From assembly GCA_030614005.1 (NCBI GenBank), contig JAUWKS010000010.1, forward strand, positions 1 to 32,000: a stretch of DNA of 32,000 nt, read 5' to 3'. The stretch is from Candidatus Heimdallarchaeota archaeon (GTDB lineage Archaea; Asgardarchaeota; Heimdallarchaeia; JABLTI01). Under the pieces are notes generated by a model. That model searched no databases. It was not told the origin of the DNA and was given only the letters and a program-made list of their open reading frames with translations. Position numbers and translations under genes: made by a program. Positions 2 through 22,617 of the stretch are shown here, in pieces; positions within the stretch are counted from its first letter, which is position 1, and each line of letters starts with the position of its first letter.

Positions 2-649
2 TTCAACAAGTATTAGATAGCTCCTAATTAGCGCTTCTCTATTTCCAATCTTCTCTTGAATTTTTATAGCATCAAAAATAATTGACCCTTTTTCTCTTTT
101 ACCTGTTATGAAGTATATATATGCAAGTCTTGACGATACTTCTGCACTTTTTTCTTTTATATTTAGTTGATCAAAAATAGCTATGCTTTTTTGATAACTT
201 GTAATTACTTTGCTGAAATCACTTTTTTGGGTAAACAAAAAACCAGACAATTTATAATATTCAGCTCTTCGTTTTTGTTCTTCTTTGCCTTTTTTATTTG
301 GTAGATTATCTATTTGTCCCTCAATTTGCTTAACTATTATGTTGAGGTCTTCTGTTTGACCTAATTCTCGATAGACTTCCCCCATAATTTGTAATGAATC
401 AATAATTAACAAACGATTTTTCTTTTTCTCACTTATTTCTAGTGATTTATTAGCTAATATTAAACATGTTTCGTATTCTGCGTATGAAAAATGAATTTTA
501 CTTTTTTTTAACAACAATTCCGTATCAAAAATAGTTTCTTGGTTGTGTTTGGAAAAATGCTTGCTAATTATCTCTAATGCTTTGTTATAGTTTCCTTTTA
601 TAATCAACGTATTTATTTCTTTTAATATACTGGATTCTTCATTCAACAA
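2..649 (-). CDS. TPR-repeat protein, runs off the left edge (not in ORF track)
   Basis: Hand translation is open from TTG at 649 (or 646) to the window edge: LNEESSILKEINTLIIKGNYNKALEII...AEYYKLSGFLFTQKSDFSKVITSYQKSIAIFDQL...AIKIQEKIGNREALIRSYL. Helical TPR-like periodicity; in-frame TAA upstream at 674-676. Confidence 0.8.
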   Translation of the reverse strand, partial: MLNEESSILKEINTLIIKGNYNKALEIISKHFSKHNQETIFDTELLLKKSKIHFSYAEYETCLILANKSLEISEKKKNRLLIIDSLQIMGEVYRELGQTEDLNIIVKQIEGQIDNLPNKKGKEEQKRRAEYYKLSGFLFTQKSDFSKVITSYQKSIAIFDQLNIKEKSAEVSSRLAYIYFITGKREKGSIIFDAIKIQEKIGNREALIRSYLILVE

Positions 650-801
650 AATACAAACACGTCGTAGAGAATTTTAAAGTTTCAATCATTACTAAAATAT
701 TTTTGTCAAGAGACTTTATTATTATATCTCTTAATTTTATAAAAAACTTTGGTTAGAACAAGTGAAGTCAAATTCCTTATAGGAATCTAACTATTCATAT
801 A

Positions 802-820
802 TAGCATTATATAAATGCTA
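802..820. promoter_or_regulatory. Inverted repeat TAGCATT-atata-AATGCTA over a TATA-like element between the divergent TPR and GNAT genes
   Basis: 7-bp arms with 5-nt spacer seen directly; a second IR ATTCCT-tat-AGGAAT at 772-786. AT-rich background lowers significance. Confidence 0.35.
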
Positions 821-935
821 AAGATATTTGAAACTATGACTTGTATATTCGAGTTAATGGAAATCAAGATTAATAATTTACGAATAAAAAAAATATCTTT
901 TGTTAGAATCATACCGACGAATGAAGGAGTAAAAT

Positions 936-1373
936 TTGAATTTAAGTACACCAAATAAGATTATTGATATCACTAATAAACCTGAATATTAGCGGTTGCT
1001 CATTAATTGCATTATACATAGAAAAAAGGAAATTCCACTTGAACAGCTACAAATAGATAATGAAAGATATGATTACCTAGAAAGAGCAATTCCCAAAGGA
1101 CTTCATATGAAGGTTTTGTTCTTCAAAGGAGAGCATATCTGGATGATTGAATATGGACCACTGGAAGCATCAGGTCTTCCTATTAATGGAGAGAATATCG
1201 TTGTAATGAATTGTATATGGGTTCATAGTCGTGCGAAAGGGAATAATTTTGGGAAGCTCCTTGTAAAAGATATGATGAAAAGTGAACAGCAAGCAACAGG
1301 TTTTGCTACTATAAGAAATTTAGACTTTTTGTATGTGAAAGAAATAAAACAAGTAAATTGTTTTTTTGCATAA
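936..1373 (+). pseudogene. GNAT-family (YoaP-like) acetyltransferase, disrupted
   Basis: GAAGGAG RBS then TTG at 936 gives MNLSTPNKIIDITNKPEY*RLLINC, with in-frame TAG at 990-992. The body has IEYGP-E...NCIWVHSRAKGNNFGKLL (degenerate acetyl-CoA loop). Resemblance to the family appears to stop after GFATI (about 1313). Confidence 0.65.
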
Positions 1374-1453
1374 TAGGTTGTAAAGATAAATATTATTTTC
1401 TAATTTTTATTTAGTTGTATTTTTTGTTATTTTTCAAGGATTTTTGTTATAAT

Positions 1454-2140
1454 TTACGCGATCAAATAGTTGCTTAAATCTTCTTTCAATTTTGGTTTAT
1501 GAGTAAAAGGATTAATATTTAATTCACGGAATTTCAGATACAAAAATAGAATGTAAAGTAAATCAAATATTAAACAACCAATTCCAAGAAACTTTACAAA
1601 AATACCATTTTGAAATTCATAGAAATTCATGAACACAAGGATTGTTGGACCTAATGTTCCAAGCATTTTAGCCAAAGCAATATAGATGGATTGTCCTGAA
1701 ACATTATTTCGTCTGAATAACATTGCTAAGAAGAGTATTGACATAACTAGATTCTGTAAAAAGGCTGAATATACTCCGGAGAAATCATCAAATTCAATTG
1801 TAATAAATAGTACTCCTAGAAAGCTTGTAGAAAATAACAGTAGAAATTGAGGAATAAACAGTCGTTTGTTCAATGAATTTGAGAAGTCTTTTTTGTAATA
1901 TAGAAAATATGTTACGACTATTACTACATCCAAAGCAAACCATACATAATTAACAATTCTTTGAGCTAATATCATAGGATAAATTGCGGCAAAAATAAAT
2001 TCCCAAGAAAGATTTAAGCAAAGAGCTACTATTGGCATACCATAATTCTTATCTTTAAAACCACGATAAATAATTAATACATATGTGATGGACCACAATA
2101 CAGCACTTGAAGCGGCTAAAAAATGACTGATTTCACTCAT
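1454..2140 (-). CDS. PaxB/Pyr4-family integral membrane terpene cyclase homologue (about 7 TM)
   Basis: Motifs WSITYVLIIYRGFKDKNYGMPIVALCLNLSWEF, NYVWFALD, QNLVMSILFLAML-RR-N-SGQS...KMLGT and LIFDLLY match the PaxB/Pyr4 pattern, including the WE glutamate and the C-terminal aspartate. GAGGGGG RBS. Confidence 0.8.
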   Translation of the reverse strand: MSEISHFLAASSAVLWSITYVLIIYRGFKDKNYGMPIVALCLNLSWEFIFAAIYPMILAQRIVNYVWFALDVVIVVTYFLYYKKDFSNSLNKRLFIPQFLLLFSTSFLGVLFITIEFDDFSGVYSAFLQNLVMSILFLAMLFRRNNVSGQSIYIALAKMLGTLGPTILVFMNFYEFQNGIFVKFLGIGCLIFDLLYILFLYLKFRELNINPFTHKPKLKEDLSNYLIA

Positions 2141-16841: not shown

Positions 16842-17822
16842 TCAATTTCTCCTTTTGCGACGTTTAATTCCTGCTATCAGAGATATTGAAATAAAACCAC
16901 TAATTGCTGCAATGATAGCAAAATTTGCACCAACGGCTTTAATACCTCCTGAAGCAATTTCTTCTTCATAGGTATCTTCCATAACTACATTATCTACTGT
17001 TTTCTTTGTTTCCAGTTTCAAGTTATAGTTATCTAATTCTCCGTCTGATGTATATTTAAGCTCAAGGATGATCTTATACAAATCATAAGAAAAGTATTGG
17101 TCTCGTCCTAAAGTAGAATTGTACTCAGGATAGGTTATTACTCCTGATAAATCAAAAAGGAAGGTCCATTTATTGTCATTTGAAAATCGTTTAAGAGCAC
17201 TATCAAGTGAATTGCGATTCATAATTTTGTAACTAGCTATATTCTCCAAAAAATCACCTAAGGTTATCTCAGTGATATTTGTTGGAGCATAAAAATTAGG
17301 AACAGATGCAAGAACAGTAGAAGCATCAAAGAAATCCACAAATGCATTGTTAATCTTCTCCCATTCGTTTTCAATTAGTAACCATTCGACAATATCAATA
17401 AATTCAAGCTGAAAATCAGTTAGTATTGTTTGATTCGTATTAATATCAAAAATATAAGTAACATCAAGAAAACCTTCGCTAAGCAAGTAATCGTCAACAA
17501 AATCATCCCAAGCGTAAGTAAAACCTCTTTCAGGAGCAATACCGTTAACATCACCAGGTATTGCTTCATATCTTTTAGCAACTCGATCAACATTAGTAAT
17601 ATTTAATTGATATTCACTTAGAAGTGATCCATCAATTATTGTTCGAAAGTTGGTATCCAGATTCAACCAGTTATTGTTGGTAGTGACCCTAGCACCCCAT
17701 AGATACGTATCTCCAGCAGACCAACTTACTGCTTGACTAGTAGAAATCGTACTAAATAGAAACAAAAATATTGTAAAACCAATCAAAGACCATATCTTAC
17801 TTTTCTTCAGCAATTTTATCAC
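16842..17822 (-). CDS. Secreted surface glycoprotein with C-terminal TM + basic tail (paralog A)
   Basis: Signal peptide ending STSQA, several N-x-S/T sequons, ends FAIIAAISGFISISLIAGIKRRKRRN. Confidence 0.75.
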   Translation of the reverse strand: MIKLLKKSKIWSLIGFTIFLFLFSTISTSQAVSWSAGDTYLWGARVTTNNNWLNLDTNFRTIIDGSLLSEYQLNITNVDRVAKRYEAIPGDVNGIAPERGFTYAWDDFVDDYLLSEGFLDVTYIFDINTNQTILTDFQLEFIDIVEWLLIENEWEKINNAFVDFFDASTVLASVPNFYAPTNITEITLGDFLENIASYKIMNRNSLDSALKRFSNDNKWTFLFDLSGVITYPEYNSTLGRDQYFSYDLYKIILELKYTSDGELDNYNLKLETKKTVDNVVMEDTYEEEIASGGIKAVGANFAIIAAISGFISISLIAGIKRRKRRN

Positions 17823-17929: not shown

Positions 17930-18892
17930 TCACTTCTTTCGCTTTACACGAACAATTACTGCAAGCAAACCTAATGCTGGAATGATCGCAAATAAAGCAA
18001 AATAACCTGTCAGTTTTTGAAGAGTACCAAAAACCATCGTACTAGTGTAAACAAAATGAGAAACTAAGTCATCATGGGTTTGTTGATATTCATATCGATA
18101 TACTGCCTTTTGCAATATTCCTCCATCAGAATATGAAAATTCACCAAAGATAGTATAAAGGTCACAGAGATAGTAATTATAGTATCCCGCAGTTCCATTA
18201 TAAACTCGAAAATGCATTTTTCCAGTGAAATCAAATTCAAAGCTAAATTTCGTATTTGTTGCAGTGAATTTGCCAATAGATTTGTTTAAATTATTCTTGA
18301 CTCCTTGAATTTTTATAAGCGAAGCATTCCCGAAAGTATCACCTAAAGTTAAATTGTAGATAATAGGATCAAATGGATGTATTACTGTATCAACAATTTC
18401 AGAGAGATTGAATAATTCAGCAAAGCCAGTATTTACTACTGCCCAATCAGGTTCGATTAATTTGAATGGATCTAATGCAAAATCAAAGCTGTACAATACT
18501 GTTTCATTGGTATCGTAATTCCAATGGAAATCAACGTCGACAGAATTAGTTAAAGGAAGTTCATCCTCTACAAAATCTTCTGCAGCATAATCGATTCCAC
18601 CATCGAAATATGTTGACCCTGTATCTGAGATATAAGCATCATATTCTTTTGATACTGTGTCTATTGCAGTAAGATTATATTTATATTCAGTATCAGTTTC
18701 TAACCGCTGATATAAATTAACACCTTGTTCATTATCAGAGAGATTGGTTTCGCTTAGACTTTGTCCGGACCAAATATAAATCCCACCTGCATTCCACTCC
18801 CGAGTAGCTGCTTGGCTACTGGAGATATTGGCTAATAGTAGTGTGAAAGCAATCACATTCAACATCAAAATAATTCGTAATTTTCGATTCAT
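17930..18892 (-). CDS. Secreted surface glycoprotein with C-terminal TM + basic tail (paralog B)
   Basis: Signal peptide ending SSSQA. Aligns by eye with paralog A (W-AG--Y-W, YN-T-ID-V-K-Y-A, FSYSDGG / LKYTSDG). Ends FALFAIIPALGLLAVIVRVKRKK. Confidence 0.75.
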   Translation of the reverse strand: MNRKLRIILMLNVIAFTLLLANISSSQAATREWNAGGIYIWSGQSLSETNLSDNEQGVNLYQRLETDTEYKYNLTAIDTVSKEYDAYISDTGSTYFDGGIDYAAEDFVEDELPLTNSVDVDFHWNYDTNETVLYSFDFALDPFKLIEPDWAVVNTGFAELFNLSEIVDTVIHPFDPIIYNLTLGDTFGNASLIKIQGVKNNLNKSIGKFTATNTKFSFEFDFTGKMHFRVYNGTAGYYNYYLCDLYTIFGEFSYSDGGILQKAVYRYEYQQTHDDLVSHFVYTSTMVFGTLQKLTGYFALFAIIPALGLLAVIVRVKRKK

Positions 18893-19051: not shown

Positions 19052-19561
19052 TTATTTTCTTCTTTTGATGAAGAATACTTGGATAGCTCCGGTTAAAGCG
19101 AGGATACTCAAAACTATTCCTAATCCAATACCACCAGTTTCTGTGACGGTAACATCGAAACCAGCATCTTTCATATGTTGTAAAGCTAAGTCAACACTAT
19201 ATTCGTAGAATGGTAAAGATTCATCAAAACCAACAGAGGCTTTAGGCCAATGTGTAACACTAGGAATACCCAAACCTTCGAGAATTTCTTCACAGATGAT
19301 CTCACGAGGAATCATATGGCTAATGGCTTTGCGAATATGTTTACCAGATTCTTCACCAGCAATAGGACAAAGTTCTCCTGTGCCAATGTAGGGATGATAC
19401 ATATTGATAGCCATTTCTTGGTTACCTGGATCGTCAACTAAAGTGTATGTTGCACCGGCAATAGTCATTTCACTGATCATTGCTTTGAAATTGTAGTCCA
19501 TCATATCAACTACACCAGAAGCAAGAGCAGATAAGGCACCTTCTTTGGAACCATAGAACAT
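19052..19561 (-). pseudogene. C-terminal fragment of an OppA/DppA-like (family 5) solute-binding protein
   Basis: QEMAINMYHP...IRKAISHMIPREIICEEILEG-G...YEYSVDLALQHMKDAGF, then TM + KRRK. Only 169 aa, with no signal peptide; upstream is AT-rich non-coding DNA. Confidence 0.65.
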
Positions 19562-19630
19562 ATTCTCATAAAAATATTTAAATATATTACACAAATCTGA
19601 GATTAAAGAGGCATTTATTTGAGAATATCT

Positions 19631-19648
19631 TTCTTATTTTATTGAGAA
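19631..19648. promoter_or_regulatory. Candidate wHTH operator TTCTTA-N6-TGAGAA
   Basis: Same geometry as 19723-19740 (TTCTAT-N6-CGAGAA) and 21132-21149. Confidence 0.5.
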
Positions 19649-19864
19649 AAACCCGTTCTTTATAAAGAAAAATCCTTTTCGCGTCAGTAGGGATCTATTA
19701 ACGGTATAATTAAATGCATAGATTCTATCAATTTCGAGAAGGTTCTTATCATTTTAGGGGAGGGTTACAAAAAACCTCTAATAAATCCATTTTAGCTCAA
19801 AAAGTTGCGAAAGCAGTCTAGATATTGTTAGAGAGAAAAGAAGGTTTAATTATTTAAGAGATAA

Positions 19865-19874
19865 TTTATATAAA
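19865..19874 (+). promoter_or_regulatory. TATA box of wHTH-1
   Basis: TTTATATAAA 31 nt upstream of the ATG, with a GGAG RBS between them. Confidence 0.5.
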
Positions 19875-19905
19875 GCGACTATTTAGAACCTATGGAGTTC
19901 AGCTA

Positions 19906-20553
19906 ATGGAATCTCAAGATTTAGTAACGTTCAAACCGGTAATTATCAAAATGGTTGATGCAAAAACATTTAGTACCTTTTCTGATGAGCATCTTACTGC
20001 TGTGCTAAGTTTTCTTCGGATTTCAAATTCCATGACTGTACCTGATTTAGTTTTGGCGTTTAAGGATCAAGGTATTATAAAATCAGACTCTACTGTTTAT
20101 AGATATATACAAAAATTAATTGAAAAAGAATTAGTTACCAAGTCCGGCAAACGTATTACTAGCGTCAATCCTGAAGAAGTTAAAAGTGAAACGCTCTACA
20201 GTCGTACTGCCCGTGTTTTTGTTGATAAATCAAATATCCCTGAAATAATTGAAAATCAACCAGATACTCCGTGCAATATTTGTAATTTAAGTGCCCAATT
20301 ATTACAGCAGCTTTTCCCACAAAATAATTTTTCAGCAAAGTGCTTTTCTACAATAATAAGTAAAATAGAGCATTCAAGAATTAAACTTTTTACTCAATTG
20401 GTAGAGAATGCAGACCAAGCTGTTCTGGATCAATTTGATGATATTAGCTTTGATCAAGTGAAAGAAATCATTAATTTAACCGGCTGGATTGCAACCTTGA
20501 AAACAATAGATTTAGATGCGGAGTTAACTGAATGCACTAAAAGTAAAAACTAA
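19906..20553 (+). CDS. Winged-helix (ArsR-like) regulator with C-terminal helical domain, paralog 1
   Basis: MTVPDLV...KSDSTVYRYIQKLIEKELV...GKR...SETLYSRTARVF. Confidence 0.8.
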   Translation: MESQDLVTFKPVIIKMVDAKTFSTFSDEHLTAVLSFLRISNSMTVPDLVLAFKDQGIIKSDSTVYRYIQKLIEKELVTKSGKRITSVNPEEVKSETLYSRTARVFVDKSNIPEIIENQPDTPCNICNLSAQLLQQLFPQNNFSAKCFSTIISKIEHSRIKLFTQLVENADQAVLDQFDDISFDQVKEIINLTGWIATLKTIDLDAELTECTKSKN

Positions 20554-20640
20554 AGTTTCTCTATCAAAGATTATTTTGATTTTTTATTCAGTATACTTTT
20601 CTTTAAGAATTAGGTTATAAGTAAAATTGCGATTTAGAGG

Positions 20641-20674
20641 AAAAATCTAACCCCTGCGATCTTTAACGCAAGGG
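20641..20674 (-). terminator. GC-rich hairpin plus U-tract ending the micropeptide operon
   Basis: Minus strand CCCUUGCG-UUAAAGAU-CGCAGGGG-UUAGAUUUUU, starting 2 nt after the stop of the third small ORF. Confidence 0.65.
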
Positions 20675-20676
20675 AA

Positions 20677-20787
20677 TTAGATATAATCATAACAGTAGTC
20701 TTCAAACATTAAAATGAAAACTTCTTTTTCTTGTTCATTTTGTTTGCAATTTGAATTGTTTTTCTTCTTGTCATTGCTTTGTTTCAT
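20677..20787 (-). CDS. Small ORF 3, 36 aa: MKQSNDKKKNNSNCKQNEQEKEVFILMFEDYCYDYI
   Basis: GAGGAG RBS (20798-20803), ATG, TAA; below the ORF-track cutoff. Confidence 0.6.
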   Translation of the reverse strand: MKQSNDKKKNNSNCKQNEQEKEVFILMFEDYCYDYI

Positions 20788-20825
20788 ACTTTATCTTCTC
20801 CTCAATTTTTTCGTTCTTATTTTTG

Positions 20826-20930
20826 TTATTTGTATTTTTCAGTAATACTCTGCATCATAGTTTGTGTCAATCGACTTTTTTGAAGTTGTTTCTTCACATG
20901 TAATTTCATTTTTTCTGTCTTAACAGTCAT
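20826..20930 (-). CDS. Small ORF 2, 34 aa: MTVKTEKMKLHVKKQLQKSRLTQTMMQSITEKYK
   Basis: GGAGGTGA RBS that overlaps the stop of small ORF 1, 6 nt before the ATG. Confidence 0.65.
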   Translation of the reverse strand: MTVKTEKMKLHVKKQLQKSRLTQTMMQSITEKYK

Positions 20931-20936
20931 CTCTTA

Positions 20937-21047
20937 TCACCTCCAGTTTGTACTCACTTGAGTCAAGCTAATAGTTAATTTTGCATTGACTCCATCATAG
21001 TTCTTTCTGATTTTTTTCTCAAGTTCTTTTCTTGTTTTAATCTTCAT
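20937..21047 (-). CDS. Small ORF 1, 36 aa: MKIKTRKELEKKIRKNYDGVNAKLTISLTQVSTNWR
   Basis: GGAG RBS (21057-21060), ATG, TGA. Confidence 0.6.
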   Translation of the reverse strand: MKIKTRKELEKKIRKNYDGVNAKLTISLTQVSTNWR

Positions 21048-21098
21048 TATTATTTTCTCCGACTAATTACGTTTAGGCAGTGTTAGTCTCCTAAAACA

Positions 21099-21149
21099 TT
21101 AAGAAATATTTCTTAACATAGTATATAAGTTTTCTCATTTAATTGAGAA
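21099..21149 (-). promoter_or_regulatory. Promoter of the micropeptide operon, bracketed by two palindromes
   Basis: Minus strand GAAAAC (BRE) + TTATATAC (TATA, 21121-21128). Perfect 18-bp palindrome TTAAGAAATATTTCTTAA at 21099-21116; TTCTCA-N6-TGAGAA at 21132-21149. Confidence 0.6.
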
Positions 21150-21295
21150 CATTGTTTAATTTTATTAGAACTTGTTTTCTAAGTCTTTAAGAAAAATATA
21201 TAAATAACTTGAGAAGATATAGACATATAGATTAAGACTATTTGAATAAATAGATATCTTATGAATAAAATAAGCAAGTACGGAGCGAAGTATTA

Positions 21296-21931
21296 ATGGT
21301 CTCTCAGGAAGCAATAACCTATAAACAAAAACCAGTTAAAATTATTAAAGATCAAAAAACGCTCAAAGTTTTTCATAAAGAAAATTTAATGATGGTTTTG
21401 AAATATCTAAAAAAAGGTCCATGTTCTATACAAGATCTTGTTACCAAATTCAAAGAACACGACAATGAAAAATCGGACAAAACTATTTATCGCTATTTAC
21501 ACAAATTAATTGAAGTTAAATTAGTAGCAAAAGCAGGTAAAAGAGTCACTGCTGATGAAGACGACGAAATTTTCAGCGAAACAATTTATATTCGATCCGC
21601 AAAAGCATTCATTACTGTTAATCCAATAGATGACCGAGAATGCACAGGTGGAGAAGAATGCCCTGTTTGGGAAGCGATACGATTATTGGTTGGTCAATTT
21701 TTTGATAAGAAAGGAGACAGAAAGAGCTTCAGTGATTTAGCTACTAAATTAGATCGTGATATAGATAAGCTTGTCATTGAAATGTTTGAAAATGCTGATG
21801 AAGAAACACTTGATAAAATTGTAGAACTAGATTGGTCAGGTATCAATCATGTAATGCAATTTGCAGGATGGTTAGCCATTAGTACAAAGATAGACATTTC
21901 TAAAGAATTAGAAAAAAGTTACAATGCATAA
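21296..21931 (+). CDS. Winged-helix (ArsR-like) regulator with C-terminal helical domain, paralog 2
   Basis: SIQDLV...KSDKTIYRYLHKLIEVKLV...GKR...SETIYIRSAKAF. C-terminal ENAD...GW motif shared with paralog 1. Confidence 0.8.
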   Translation: MVSQEAITYKQKPVKIIKDQKTLKVFHKENLMMVLKYLKKGPCSIQDLVTKFKEHDNEKSDKTIYRYLHKLIEVKLVAKAGKRVTADEDDEIFSETIYIRSAKAFITVNPIDDRECTGGEECPVWEAIRLLVGQFFDKKGDRKSFSDLATKLDRDIDKLVIEMFENADEETLDKIVELDWSGINHVMQFAGWLAISTKIDISKELEKSYNA

Positions 21932-21986
21932 TCTCATTTGAGATTTTACTAAACAAAACAATAACATCAAAAGTATTTAACTCTAG

Positions 21987-22041
21987 AACTTGAGGGCGAG
22001 GTTTCCCTAATTAACCATTCCTTTCTCCTCTCTCTCAAGTT
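21987..22041. terminator. Long stem-loop between convergent genes
   Basis: AACTTGAGGGCGAGG-N25-CCTCTCTCTCAAGTT; 14 of 15 pairs including one G-U on the plus-strand RNA. Confidence 0.45.
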
Positions 22042-22080
22042 TATTGATTACTTTTTACTTCGTTATGCAGATTGAAAAAC

Positions 22081-22617
22081 CTAGTCTAACTCTTGGATAT
22101 AAGTTGAAAATGGTTCAAGTTCTTTCCAAAGATTGAAATGAGTGTTAAGAATCCCAGCTAAATTAGAATACTCGACAAACATTCCTTGTTTCCGAAAACC
22201 AAGGAGGTTATCAAACGTTTTAAGGGCTAAGATAATTTCCCAACCAGTATGGTTTGATTTTTCTCGCATAAAGGTTCGAAGGTTAGTAAAAAGAACTTTA
22301 GGTGTATCATCACTATCAGGACCATTAAAATCAGTAATAAGTATTGCACAGATACGAGTTAATCTTTTAAGATCTACTTCAGTGCTCACTTGATATCGTT
22401 TTCTTAGCTTTTCACTTAGATTATAGGTAACACCATCAGATCTCATTAATGTATAAGGTATAGATAATGTCTCTTTTTCCTTATTTTCAATAAATGAGCC
22501 AGGCTTAAAAACGAGTTTACCTACTGATGACTGAATAATTAAATTGAAACCTGTTTGTTGTAAATATTCAATGCCAATTTTGAATTTGTTTTGTCTCTCT
22601 TTACGATTCATAAACAT
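22081..22617 (-). CDS. Hypothetical protein
   Basis: 178-aa ORF filling the gap; no motif recognised. Confidence 0.6.
   Translation of the reverse strand: MFMNRKERQNKFKIGIEYLQQTGFNLIIQSSVGKLVFKPGSFIENKEKETLSIPYTLMRSDGVTYNLSEKLRKRYQVSTEVDLKRLTRICAILITDFNGPDSDDTPKVLFTNLRTFMREKSNHTGWEIILALKTFDNLLGFRKQGMFVEYSNLAGILNTHFNLWKELEPFSTYIQELD

Follow-up and report, generated by a model that had tools for sequence, protein, structure and literature searches.

In Firmicutes and their phages, Rgg/SHP (short hydrophobic peptide) and RRNPP cassettes place a tiny peptide gene beside, and often divergent from, the gene of a linked transcription factor. A locus of comparable layout is described here from an Asgard archaeon, in which three minus-strand micro-ORFs (open reading frames ORF1, ORF2 and ORF3, together the trio) lie between two plus-strand winged helix-turn-helix (wHTH) genes, wHTH-A and wHTH-B. 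The locus belongs to contig JAUWKS010000010.1 of Candidatus Heimdallarchaeota archaeon (assembly GCA_030614005.1), positions 1 to 32,000 of the forward strand; this whole stretch of 32,000 nucleotides is the window to which all coordinates refer unless a contig is named. The likeness to Rgg/SHP and RRNPP lies in the divergence of the peptide operon from wHTH-B and the genus-wide pairing of such genes, in the charged head and conserved hydrophobic tail of ORF3 and of a family (X) in sister cassettes, and in the multiplication and diversification of the cassettes within the lineage. The differences concern the regulator, predicted to be a ~210-residue ArsR/PH1932-type wHTH protein with a small helical bundle and not an HTH-TPR (tetratricopeptide repeat) receptor; the absence of any export signal, exporter or protease at the cassettes scanned; the presence of three peptides, two of them basic and probably helical; and the host, an archaeon with a BRE/TATA promoter (B recognition element and TATA box).

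Other described systems share single features with this locus. PH1932 (1ULY/2CWE) and Phr (2P4W), ArsR-type regulators of Pyrococcus, combine an N-terminal wHTH with a C-terminal helical domain, as does the wHTH-B model, and repression by Phr is exerted from a palindrome located at or after the TATA box and transcription start. By analogy, the palindrome P2 described below may occupy a comparable position, at or after the TATA box. The regulators differ in that identity to the Pyrococcus proteins is 18–20% and that the family here numbers 5–11 copies per genome; we know of no small-ORF partner described for PH1932 or Phr. Small proteins of Methanosarcina mazei bind glutamine synthetase or the ammonium transporter/GlnK, and the present peptides may be like them in being shorter than 60 residues, in acting in the cytoplasm through a larger binding partner, and in having short genes that are often overlooked. 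Those of M. mazei are single genes in a metabolic regulon, whereas here operons of one to three peptides accompany a dedicated regulator and the families are confined to one genus. Plant-type microProteins, tiny proteins that mimic an interaction domain of a transcription factor and titrate it, differ in that comparison of the peptides here with the wHTH family revealed no sequence likeness to any part of it.

To our knowledge, no part of archaeal genomes has been explored less than the proteins of fewer than 40 residues, and next to nothing has been learnt about gene regulation in Asgard archaea. New here are the predicted PH1932/Phr-like identity of the flanking regulators, the genus-only expansion with its micro-protein pairing, the micro-protein families X, Y and Z, and the promoter signature that the cassettes share; the trio locus itself is a genuine and fairly unusual finding.

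Architecture of the micro-protein operon

The operon, its control elements and the two flanking genes are arranged as follows.

20937–21047, minus strand: ORF1, 36 residues, basic (net charge +7), Shine–Dalgarno sequence (SD) GGAG at 21060–21057
20826–20930, minus strand: ORF2, 34 residues, basic (+7), SD GGAGGTGA at 20944–20937, containing the TGA stop of ORF1
20677–20787, minus strand: ORF3, 36 residues, SD GAGGAG at 20803–20798
21122–21136, minus strand: BRE-like GAGAAAAC with TATA box TTATATA (TATA at 21128–21122)
21132–21149, minus strand: P1, palindrome TTCTCA-N6-TGAGAA, candidate operator directly upstream of the BRE/TATA
21099–21116, minus strand: P2, perfect 18-nt inverted repeat TTAAGAAAT|ATTTCTTAA, candidate repressor site between the TATA box and the inferred transcription start
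20641–20674, minus strand: intrinsic-terminator-like hairpin and T-tract; hairpin at 20674–20651, 2 nt past the TAA of ORF3, with a G+C stem
21296–21931, plus strand: wHTH-B, 211 residues, divergent from the operon and probably its local regulator
21191–21215, plus strand: candidate wHTH-B promoter; an A/T-rich TATA-like box followed by a TGAGAA half-site at 21210–21215
19906–20553, plus strand: wHTH-A, 215 residues, long-branch paralog downstream of the operon

SD spacing is normal for all three ORFs. ORF1 and ORF2 are probably helical, and ORF3 is divided into a variable K/N/E-rich N-terminal part, a charged and disordered-looking head, and an invariant 13-residue C-terminal tail of hydrophobic, aromatic and acidic residues that includes Cys and Tyr. 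Neither a signal peptide nor a hydrophobic segment of membrane length is present in ORF1, ORF2 or ORF3, the longest hydrophobic run being ~8 residues. Among 20,000 first-order Markov sequences of matched length and composition, none contained a chance trio, defined as at least three same-strand ATG ORFs, each of at least 34 residues and preceded by an SD. A read-through fusion of ORF1 and ORF2 was considered and rejected: the two share a frame in the window's own genome, but two stops intervene and the register differs in a second species of the genus.

The ORFs, SDs, promoter and terminator that a first-pass annotation had read from the letters are all present, including the overlap of the ORF2 ribosome-binding site (RBS) with the stop of ORF1. 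The description of the unit in that annotation as unannotated and below gene-calling cutoffs does not hold, since public protein collections (NCBI, ENA, Logan) contain all three exact sequences, under no name, and related peptides of 28–32 residues have also been gene-called. Its statement that no such unit had been described is borne out: the literature on Asgard and archaeal small-protein/regulator cassettes yielded nothing pertinent, and no paper or curated family covering the peptides was found. Pfam and NCBIfam searches over all peptide families returned no match, the ESM Atlas queried with ORF3 gave no usable match, and a degenerate-pattern scan of JGI metagenome contigs for ORF3 gave none that was confirmed.

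Conservation and coding status of the trio

The locus is retained in four lineages. Apart from the window's own genome (G000), it is carried by two other species of the same genus (G001 and G010) and by a fourth lineage from a public assembly (L104), at ~80% DNA identity, with the same gene order and all three frames intact; matching DNA is also found in marine-sediment and cold-seep metagenomes. Ratios of nonsynonymous to synonymous substitution (dN/dS, Nei–Gojobori) are 0.41–0.59 for ORF1, 0.08–0.17 for ORF2 and 0.14–0.42 for ORF3, those of ORF2 being like the flanking genes (0.07–0.12), at a synonymous divergence (dS) of 0.5–1.2 for ORFs and flanking genes alike. The first-pass annotation had looked to syntenic homologues with dN/dS below 1 for support and to unconserved frames or RBSs for refutation; what is found is a locus kept in four lineages at dN/dS 0.08–0.59, with its frames intact and its SDs mostly preserved.

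In a six-frame control across three species, the annotated frame is the only one free of stops in each ORF, every other frame containing 1–14. The pN/pS ratio is lowest in the annotated frame or tied with the wobble-aligned antisense frame, which contains stops; for ORF2, the value of 0.18 is matched only by that antisense frame (0.19, with stops). In ORF2, and to a lesser degree in ORF3, differences cluster at third codon positions. Of the 34 columns of ORF2, 24 are invariant, and the last 13 residues of ORF3 show synonymous changes only. Eight distinct ORF3 variants drawn from genomes and metagenomes all keep the tail, every change falling within the first 23 residues. ORF1 is the weakest case of the three, its first 17 residues being mostly invariant and its second half loose, except for the codons that double as the RBS of ORF2. 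The SDs are conserved across species, the one exception being that of ORF1 in G010, which is weakened. The only indel, a 2-nt gap, falls between ORF1 and ORF2, outside any frame.

DNA identity is 81% in the promoter region and spans 81–86% over the promoter region, ORF2 and ORF3, with 70% in ORF1 and 61% in the terminator and beyond, the three-species alignment largely breaking down in and past the terminator. Because identity falls to 61% there, the ORFs and the 250-nt promoter region are selectively conserved, which a short divergence time would not explain. On these sequence comparisons, the trio very probably consists of real protein genes and forms what appears to be a self-contained peptide transcription unit under purifying selection.

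Phe-rich ORFs of 43–50 residues are present on the opposite strand (20714–20903, plus), facing the Lys-rich coding sequence and partly open in relatives too. Since stops appear in those frames across species, they are regarded as a by-product of AAA/AAG-rich coding.

Promoter, candidate operators and terminator

P1 fits the pattern TTCT-N10-AGAA and has arms that are invariant in G000, G001 and G010, P2 is likewise conserved in G001 and G010, and sister cassettes have a related TGAGAA-N4-TTTCyTA at the same place. The transcription start against which P2 is placed is a predicted one. The pattern TTCT-N10-AGAA occurs six times in the window against 1.9 expected, three of these occurrences, P1 among them, lying in the two wHTH promoter regions. 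TGAGAA half-sites occur five times in the 559 nt of those two regions, compared with ~0.5 expected from the window-wide density. In the candidate wHTH-B promoter, the complement of TTCTCAAG is invariant in three species.

The promoter signature is specific to these cassettes. The 16-mer TGAGAAWWYTTWTATA, comprising the 3′ arm of P1 and the TATA box, has two copies in the 3.6 Mb of the window's own genome, both in wHTH/micro-protein cassettes, one at the trio operon and the other on contig C103; controls gave 0. Genus-wide, 17 matches are found against one in the reversed control. For 11 of them the location is precisely the interval that separates a wHTH gene from its peptide operon.

At the other end of the operon, a terminator scan identifies one such site compared with 0.1 expected in shuffled sequence, and the consensus fold contains 10 pairs, two of which show compensatory double changes, so that the stem covaries. 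A short hairpin, TTAGG...CCTAA (21094–21073, minus strand), is also present in the inferred 5′ leader of the operon and is kept, with changes, in G001 and G010.

Predicted fold of the flanking regulators

wHTH-A and wHTH-B are paralogs, as the first-pass annotation had it, with 34% identity. Pfam gives no match for wHTH-A and only a weak sub-threshold FUR match for wHTH-B. The AlphaFold2 model of wHTH-B (mean predicted local distance difference test score, pLDDT, 87) comprises an N-terminal β-hairpin, a winged helix with a long wing, and a C-terminal domain of five short helices. Its best full-length matches among solved structures are those of PH1932, the ArsR homologue of Pyrococcus horikoshii (1ULY, E 2.6e-8; 2CWE, E 1.6e-7), with template-modelling (TM) scores of 0.52–0.57 over ~200 residues at 18–20% identity, and further matches to the wHTH part are Phr, PadR and SmtB. 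By this model, the flanking regulators are PH1932/Phr-like ArsR-type winged-helix proteins, built of a wHTH domain and a C-terminal helical domain. The residues of the recognition helix are invariant across the wHTH paralogs, which fits a shared TGAGAA half-site.

The upstream region of wHTH-A (19595–19905) contains two TTCT-N10-AGAA sites and two TGAGAA half-sites. This gene is divergently paired with an OppA-like binding-protein gene, which in a relative is a full-length SBP_bac_5 gene.

The linker that joins the wing of wHTH-B to its helical domain, modelled at low confidence, carries a C-x5-C-P motif at residues ~116–123. Several paralogs share this motif and others lack it; it may serve as a redox or metal site.

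Genus-wide cassettes and micro-protein families

The wHTH family is present in 70 of the 82 genomes of the class, and within the genus most genomes carry 5–9 copies by protein search, with up to 11 by the family profile. A synteny scan of the paralogous loci finds small SD-preceded ORFs divergently upstream of nearly every copy in the genus. The recurrent cassette consists of a divergent promoter of the form GAGAAAAyTTATATA, a TGAGAA-type palindrome just downstream, and one to three short SD-preceded ORFs; a hairpin terminator is also present in the sister cassette that was read through. The peptides of the sister cassettes fall into three families.

Family X: 33–38 residues, charged head and a tail ending ...ILLTMFYSDGLI
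Family Y: 22–28 residues, basic helix, ...IKKEL...
Family Z: 28–32 residues, basic helix followed by RMKFALxTG[RKA]

Profile searches of all 82 class genomes place X in 7 of the 10 other genomes of the genus and nowhere else, the family being absent from G000, G001 and G010 and from the 82%-complete G007. Every one of the 11 genus genomes carries Z, a single genome giving as many as 13 matches, and the other genera have none. Only 34 Z clusters, all of them peptides of the Z kind, occur in a library of 1.84 billion representatives. Of the 30 best Z places, 24 lie within 1 kb of a wHTH gene on the opposite strand. Matches to the ORF1, ORF2 and ORF3 profiles are confined, among the genomes searched, to G000, G001 and G010.

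In the regulator tree, regulators that face a divergent X-Y-Z operon form the sister group of the wHTH-B clade (support 83/84). The layout of ORF3 is like that of X, and ORF1 and ORF2 are reminiscent of Y and Z, both basic helices; a family link is hinted at only by the ORF1 profile, whose best non-self matches within the genus come from two Z genes (E 0.016). The trio would thus be the positional counterpart of X-Y-Z in its sub-lineage and not a proven member of those families.

A third cassette of the window's own genome, on contig C103 (L011), consists of a wHTH paralog (592–1212, minus strand) facing a single ORF (1419–1529, plus strand) that encodes a basic peptide of 36 residues. It carries the same TGAGAAAATTTATATA promoter and its own hairpin, and the peptide is conserved in G010 (L054). 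Found in two lineages, this peptide appears to represent a fourth micro-protein family of single-ORF type.

Collectively, these comparisons present the trio as one copy of a genus-specific cassette expansion and not as a unique unit. Outside the genus, members of the wHTH family are divergently paired with genes of ordinary size, and among the genomes searched it appears to be only in this genus that the family is both expanded and divergently paired with one to three micro-protein genes. The link to the regulators drawn by the first-pass annotation is sustained in part. The pairing at family level and the shared promoter/operator signature recur genus-wide; the involvement of both flanking genes does not follow, the pattern pairing the operon with wHTH-B and wHTH-A with the OppA-like gene. 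The roles that the annotation suggested for the peptides, as ligands, anti-repressors or signals, are putative.

In another genus of the class (loci L082–L085, L092 and L093), members of the regulator family lie divergent from a conserved protein of ~310 residues that starts MKVVYRNWEPN...

Proposed function and alternative explanations

The reading proposed for the cassette, to which we give about even odds (roughly 0.5), is that of a micro-protein operon under its local regulator, with intracellular products that possibly act on that regulator. Its components are held with different confidence. Regulation of the operon by wHTH-B is likely, judging from the promoter signature and the recurrent pairing. 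Dimers of wHTH-B would bind the TGAGAA-type palindromes P1 and P2 on either side of the TATA box, and occupancy of P2, between the TATA box and the inferred start, would repress by blocking polymerase recruitment, this being the classic position of an archaeal repressor. wHTH-B probably also regulates itself through the half-site at 21210–21215 in its own candidate promoter. The micro-proteins may then work intracellularly, through binding to a larger protein. Since no gene other than that of the cognate regulator accompanies the peptides consistently, the regulator is the leading candidate for this partner, and such binding would close a feedback loop; feedback of the peptides on wHTH-B is a tentative proposal, held at somewhat less than even odds. 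A predicted complex of wHTH-B with ORF3 scored 0.01 in a single run without controls and weighs neither way. Mimicry of a regulator helix by the ORF3 tail (I-x-M-F-E in both) was tried and rejected (BLASTP E 27; hhalign P 0.43 and 0.53).

Several observations weigh against this reading. The hexamer TGAGAA is not enriched over the window as a whole. Hidden Markov models (HMMs) of X, Y and Z built without the trio reach it only at E ~1, and hhalign gives P 0.013–0.032, so that no significant relationship is obtained; since homology between the trio and X, Y and Z is not statistically demonstrable, the statement that they form the same system rests on position, architecture and promoter signature. 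The pairing of the regulator family with ordinary-sized genes in other genera is fitted as well by peptides that are simply the regulated output as by feedback. Finally, Z genes also stand alone away from this wHTH family (C7, C121 and C40), mostly as tandem pairs, from which it follows that the Z family at least need not act on a cognate regulator. The stand-alone Z places are listed below.

C40 of G000, ~56.87–57.11 kb (L098 566–810): Z pair, on the same contig as the trio
C7 (L075 2408–2675): Z pair adjoining a small GTPase gene
C121 (L076 2115–2364): Z pair just downstream of two genes that we take, by eye from their translations, to be SRP19- and Gar1-like
C54 (L077 2515–2604): Z immediately upstream of a 359-residue coiled-coil protein with a C-terminal ArsR-like wHTH

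These same stand-alone pairs favour micro-proteins that are effectors acting elsewhere, for instance by binding nucleic acids, the ribosome or another machine, with wHTH-B as a mere local switch that receives no feedback. The net charge of about +7 of both ORF1 and ORF2 suits such a role, divergent regulator–target pairs normally have an effector as the target, and the regulator family serves ordinary genes in other genera. This explanation leaves unaccounted for why a genome should have 5–11 separate regulators, each in charge of a co-diverging peptide set of its own, and the gene neighbourhood indicates no partner; it is considered rather unlikely. Cell–cell signalling of the Rgg/SHP/RRNPP type would make ORF3 (X in sister cassettes) a pro-peptide: its tail would be released, leave and re-enter the cell, and be detected by the C-terminal domain of the wHTH protein. 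This is judged improbable. ORF3 and X are indeed SHP-like in layout, with 33–38 residues, a charged head that varies and a hydrophobic tail, bearing acidic residues, that is conserved; their genes diverge from the regulator gene; the lineage-specific type of tail (ORF3 or X) accompanies a diverged regulator clade, as with pherotypes; and the ancestral neighbour of the cluster is a full-length OppA-type (SBP_bac_5) protein gene divergent from wHTH-A. Set against this, the peptides have neither a signal peptide nor a membrane-length hydrophobic segment, the regulator has a five-helix bundle after the wHTH and no TPR domain, and the layout does not suit ORF1, ORF2, Y or Z. No modifying enzyme, exporter or processing protease was found linked to any cassette in Pfam scans of the window neighbours and two sister cassettes, the binding-protein gene is truncated in the window genome, and no OppBCDF genes lie near the trio. 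The fuller version, a system of archaeal peptide communication with ORF3 and X tails as pheromones, PH1932-type wHTH proteins as receptors, lineage-specific pherotypes and the OppA-type protein as the ancestral uptake component, is doubtful to a slightly greater degree; we know of no earlier case of quorum sensing by ribosomal peptides in Archaea.

Small size, the head/tail division of ORF3 with Cys and Tyr in its conserved tail, and the several paralogous precursor-like genes per genome would also be compatible with ribosomally synthesized and post-translationally modified peptides (RiPPs) or bacteriocin precursors that are modified and secreted. The scans of the window and of sister cassettes revealed no radical-SAM, YcaO, lanthipeptide or other modifying enzyme, no peptidase-exporter and no immunity gene; the peptides are for the most part strongly polar and basic, and the sole conserved neighbour is the regulator, which makes this origin very unlikely. 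More remote still is the explanation that no protein genes are involved, the frames being open by chance in a conserved non-coding RNA or regulatory DNA. It can draw on an upstream promoter region as conserved as the ORFs (81% versus 70–86%), on the weakly constrained second half of ORF1 and on AAA-rich sequence that leaves antisense frames partly open. It is opposed by the third-position bias of ORF2 and, less sharply, ORF3, by the pN/pS minima or ties and the complete absence of stops in the annotated frames across species, by the conserved SDs and the placement of the sole indel, by the simulations, and by an Rfam search of 19500–22500 that returned nothing relevant.

The results form a linked set: three micro-proteins under clear purifying selection; a promoter, candidate operator and terminator; a paired regulator with a confident structural model; and paralogous cassettes throughout the genus. 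These cassettes constitute a natural comparative set for matching peptides to regulators. The system is also small: one recombinant protein and synthetic peptides would be enough for in vitro work that needs no culture of the organism. Modulation of the regulators by their peptides, if it occurs, would be a new regulatory principle for archaea; if the peptides prove to be secreted signals, they would be the first in the domain Archaea, in the lineage closest to eukaryotes.

Gene neighbourhood

The wHTH regulator is the only gene that consistently co-occurs with the cassette peptides. In the two sister cassettes, unrelated metabolic genes follow the operon, and the non-wHTH neighbours vary from cassette to cassette. 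The other neighbours in the window comprise a truncated SBP_bac_5 remnant, two family-less secreted membrane-anchored proteins, an LRR (leucine-rich repeat) protein, a giant β-propeller protein and an ABC-2 transporter.

The SBP_bac_5 (OppA-type) ORF of the window (19052–19594, minus strand, 180 residues) retains no more than the last third of the domain and has no signal peptide. On a related contig, the gene at the same place encodes 582 residues and is divergent from wHTH-A, with a spacing ~1.35 kb longer; given this full-length gene and the longer spacing in the relative, the window's copy looks like a 5′-deleted remnant.

The two secreted proteins are paralogous and encoded on the minus strand at 17930–18892 (320 residues) and 16842–17822 (326 residues), each with a signal peptide, many N-x-S/T sites and a C-terminal membrane anchor; neither matches a Pfam family. 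Co-transcription of the 320-residue protein with the peptides was considered and rejected, because the sister operon has its own terminator and the neighbour is present in one ortholog group only. In that sister-species ortholog group, homologs with 30–35% identity to the secreted proteins lie directly downstream of the X-Y-Z operon, behind its terminator.

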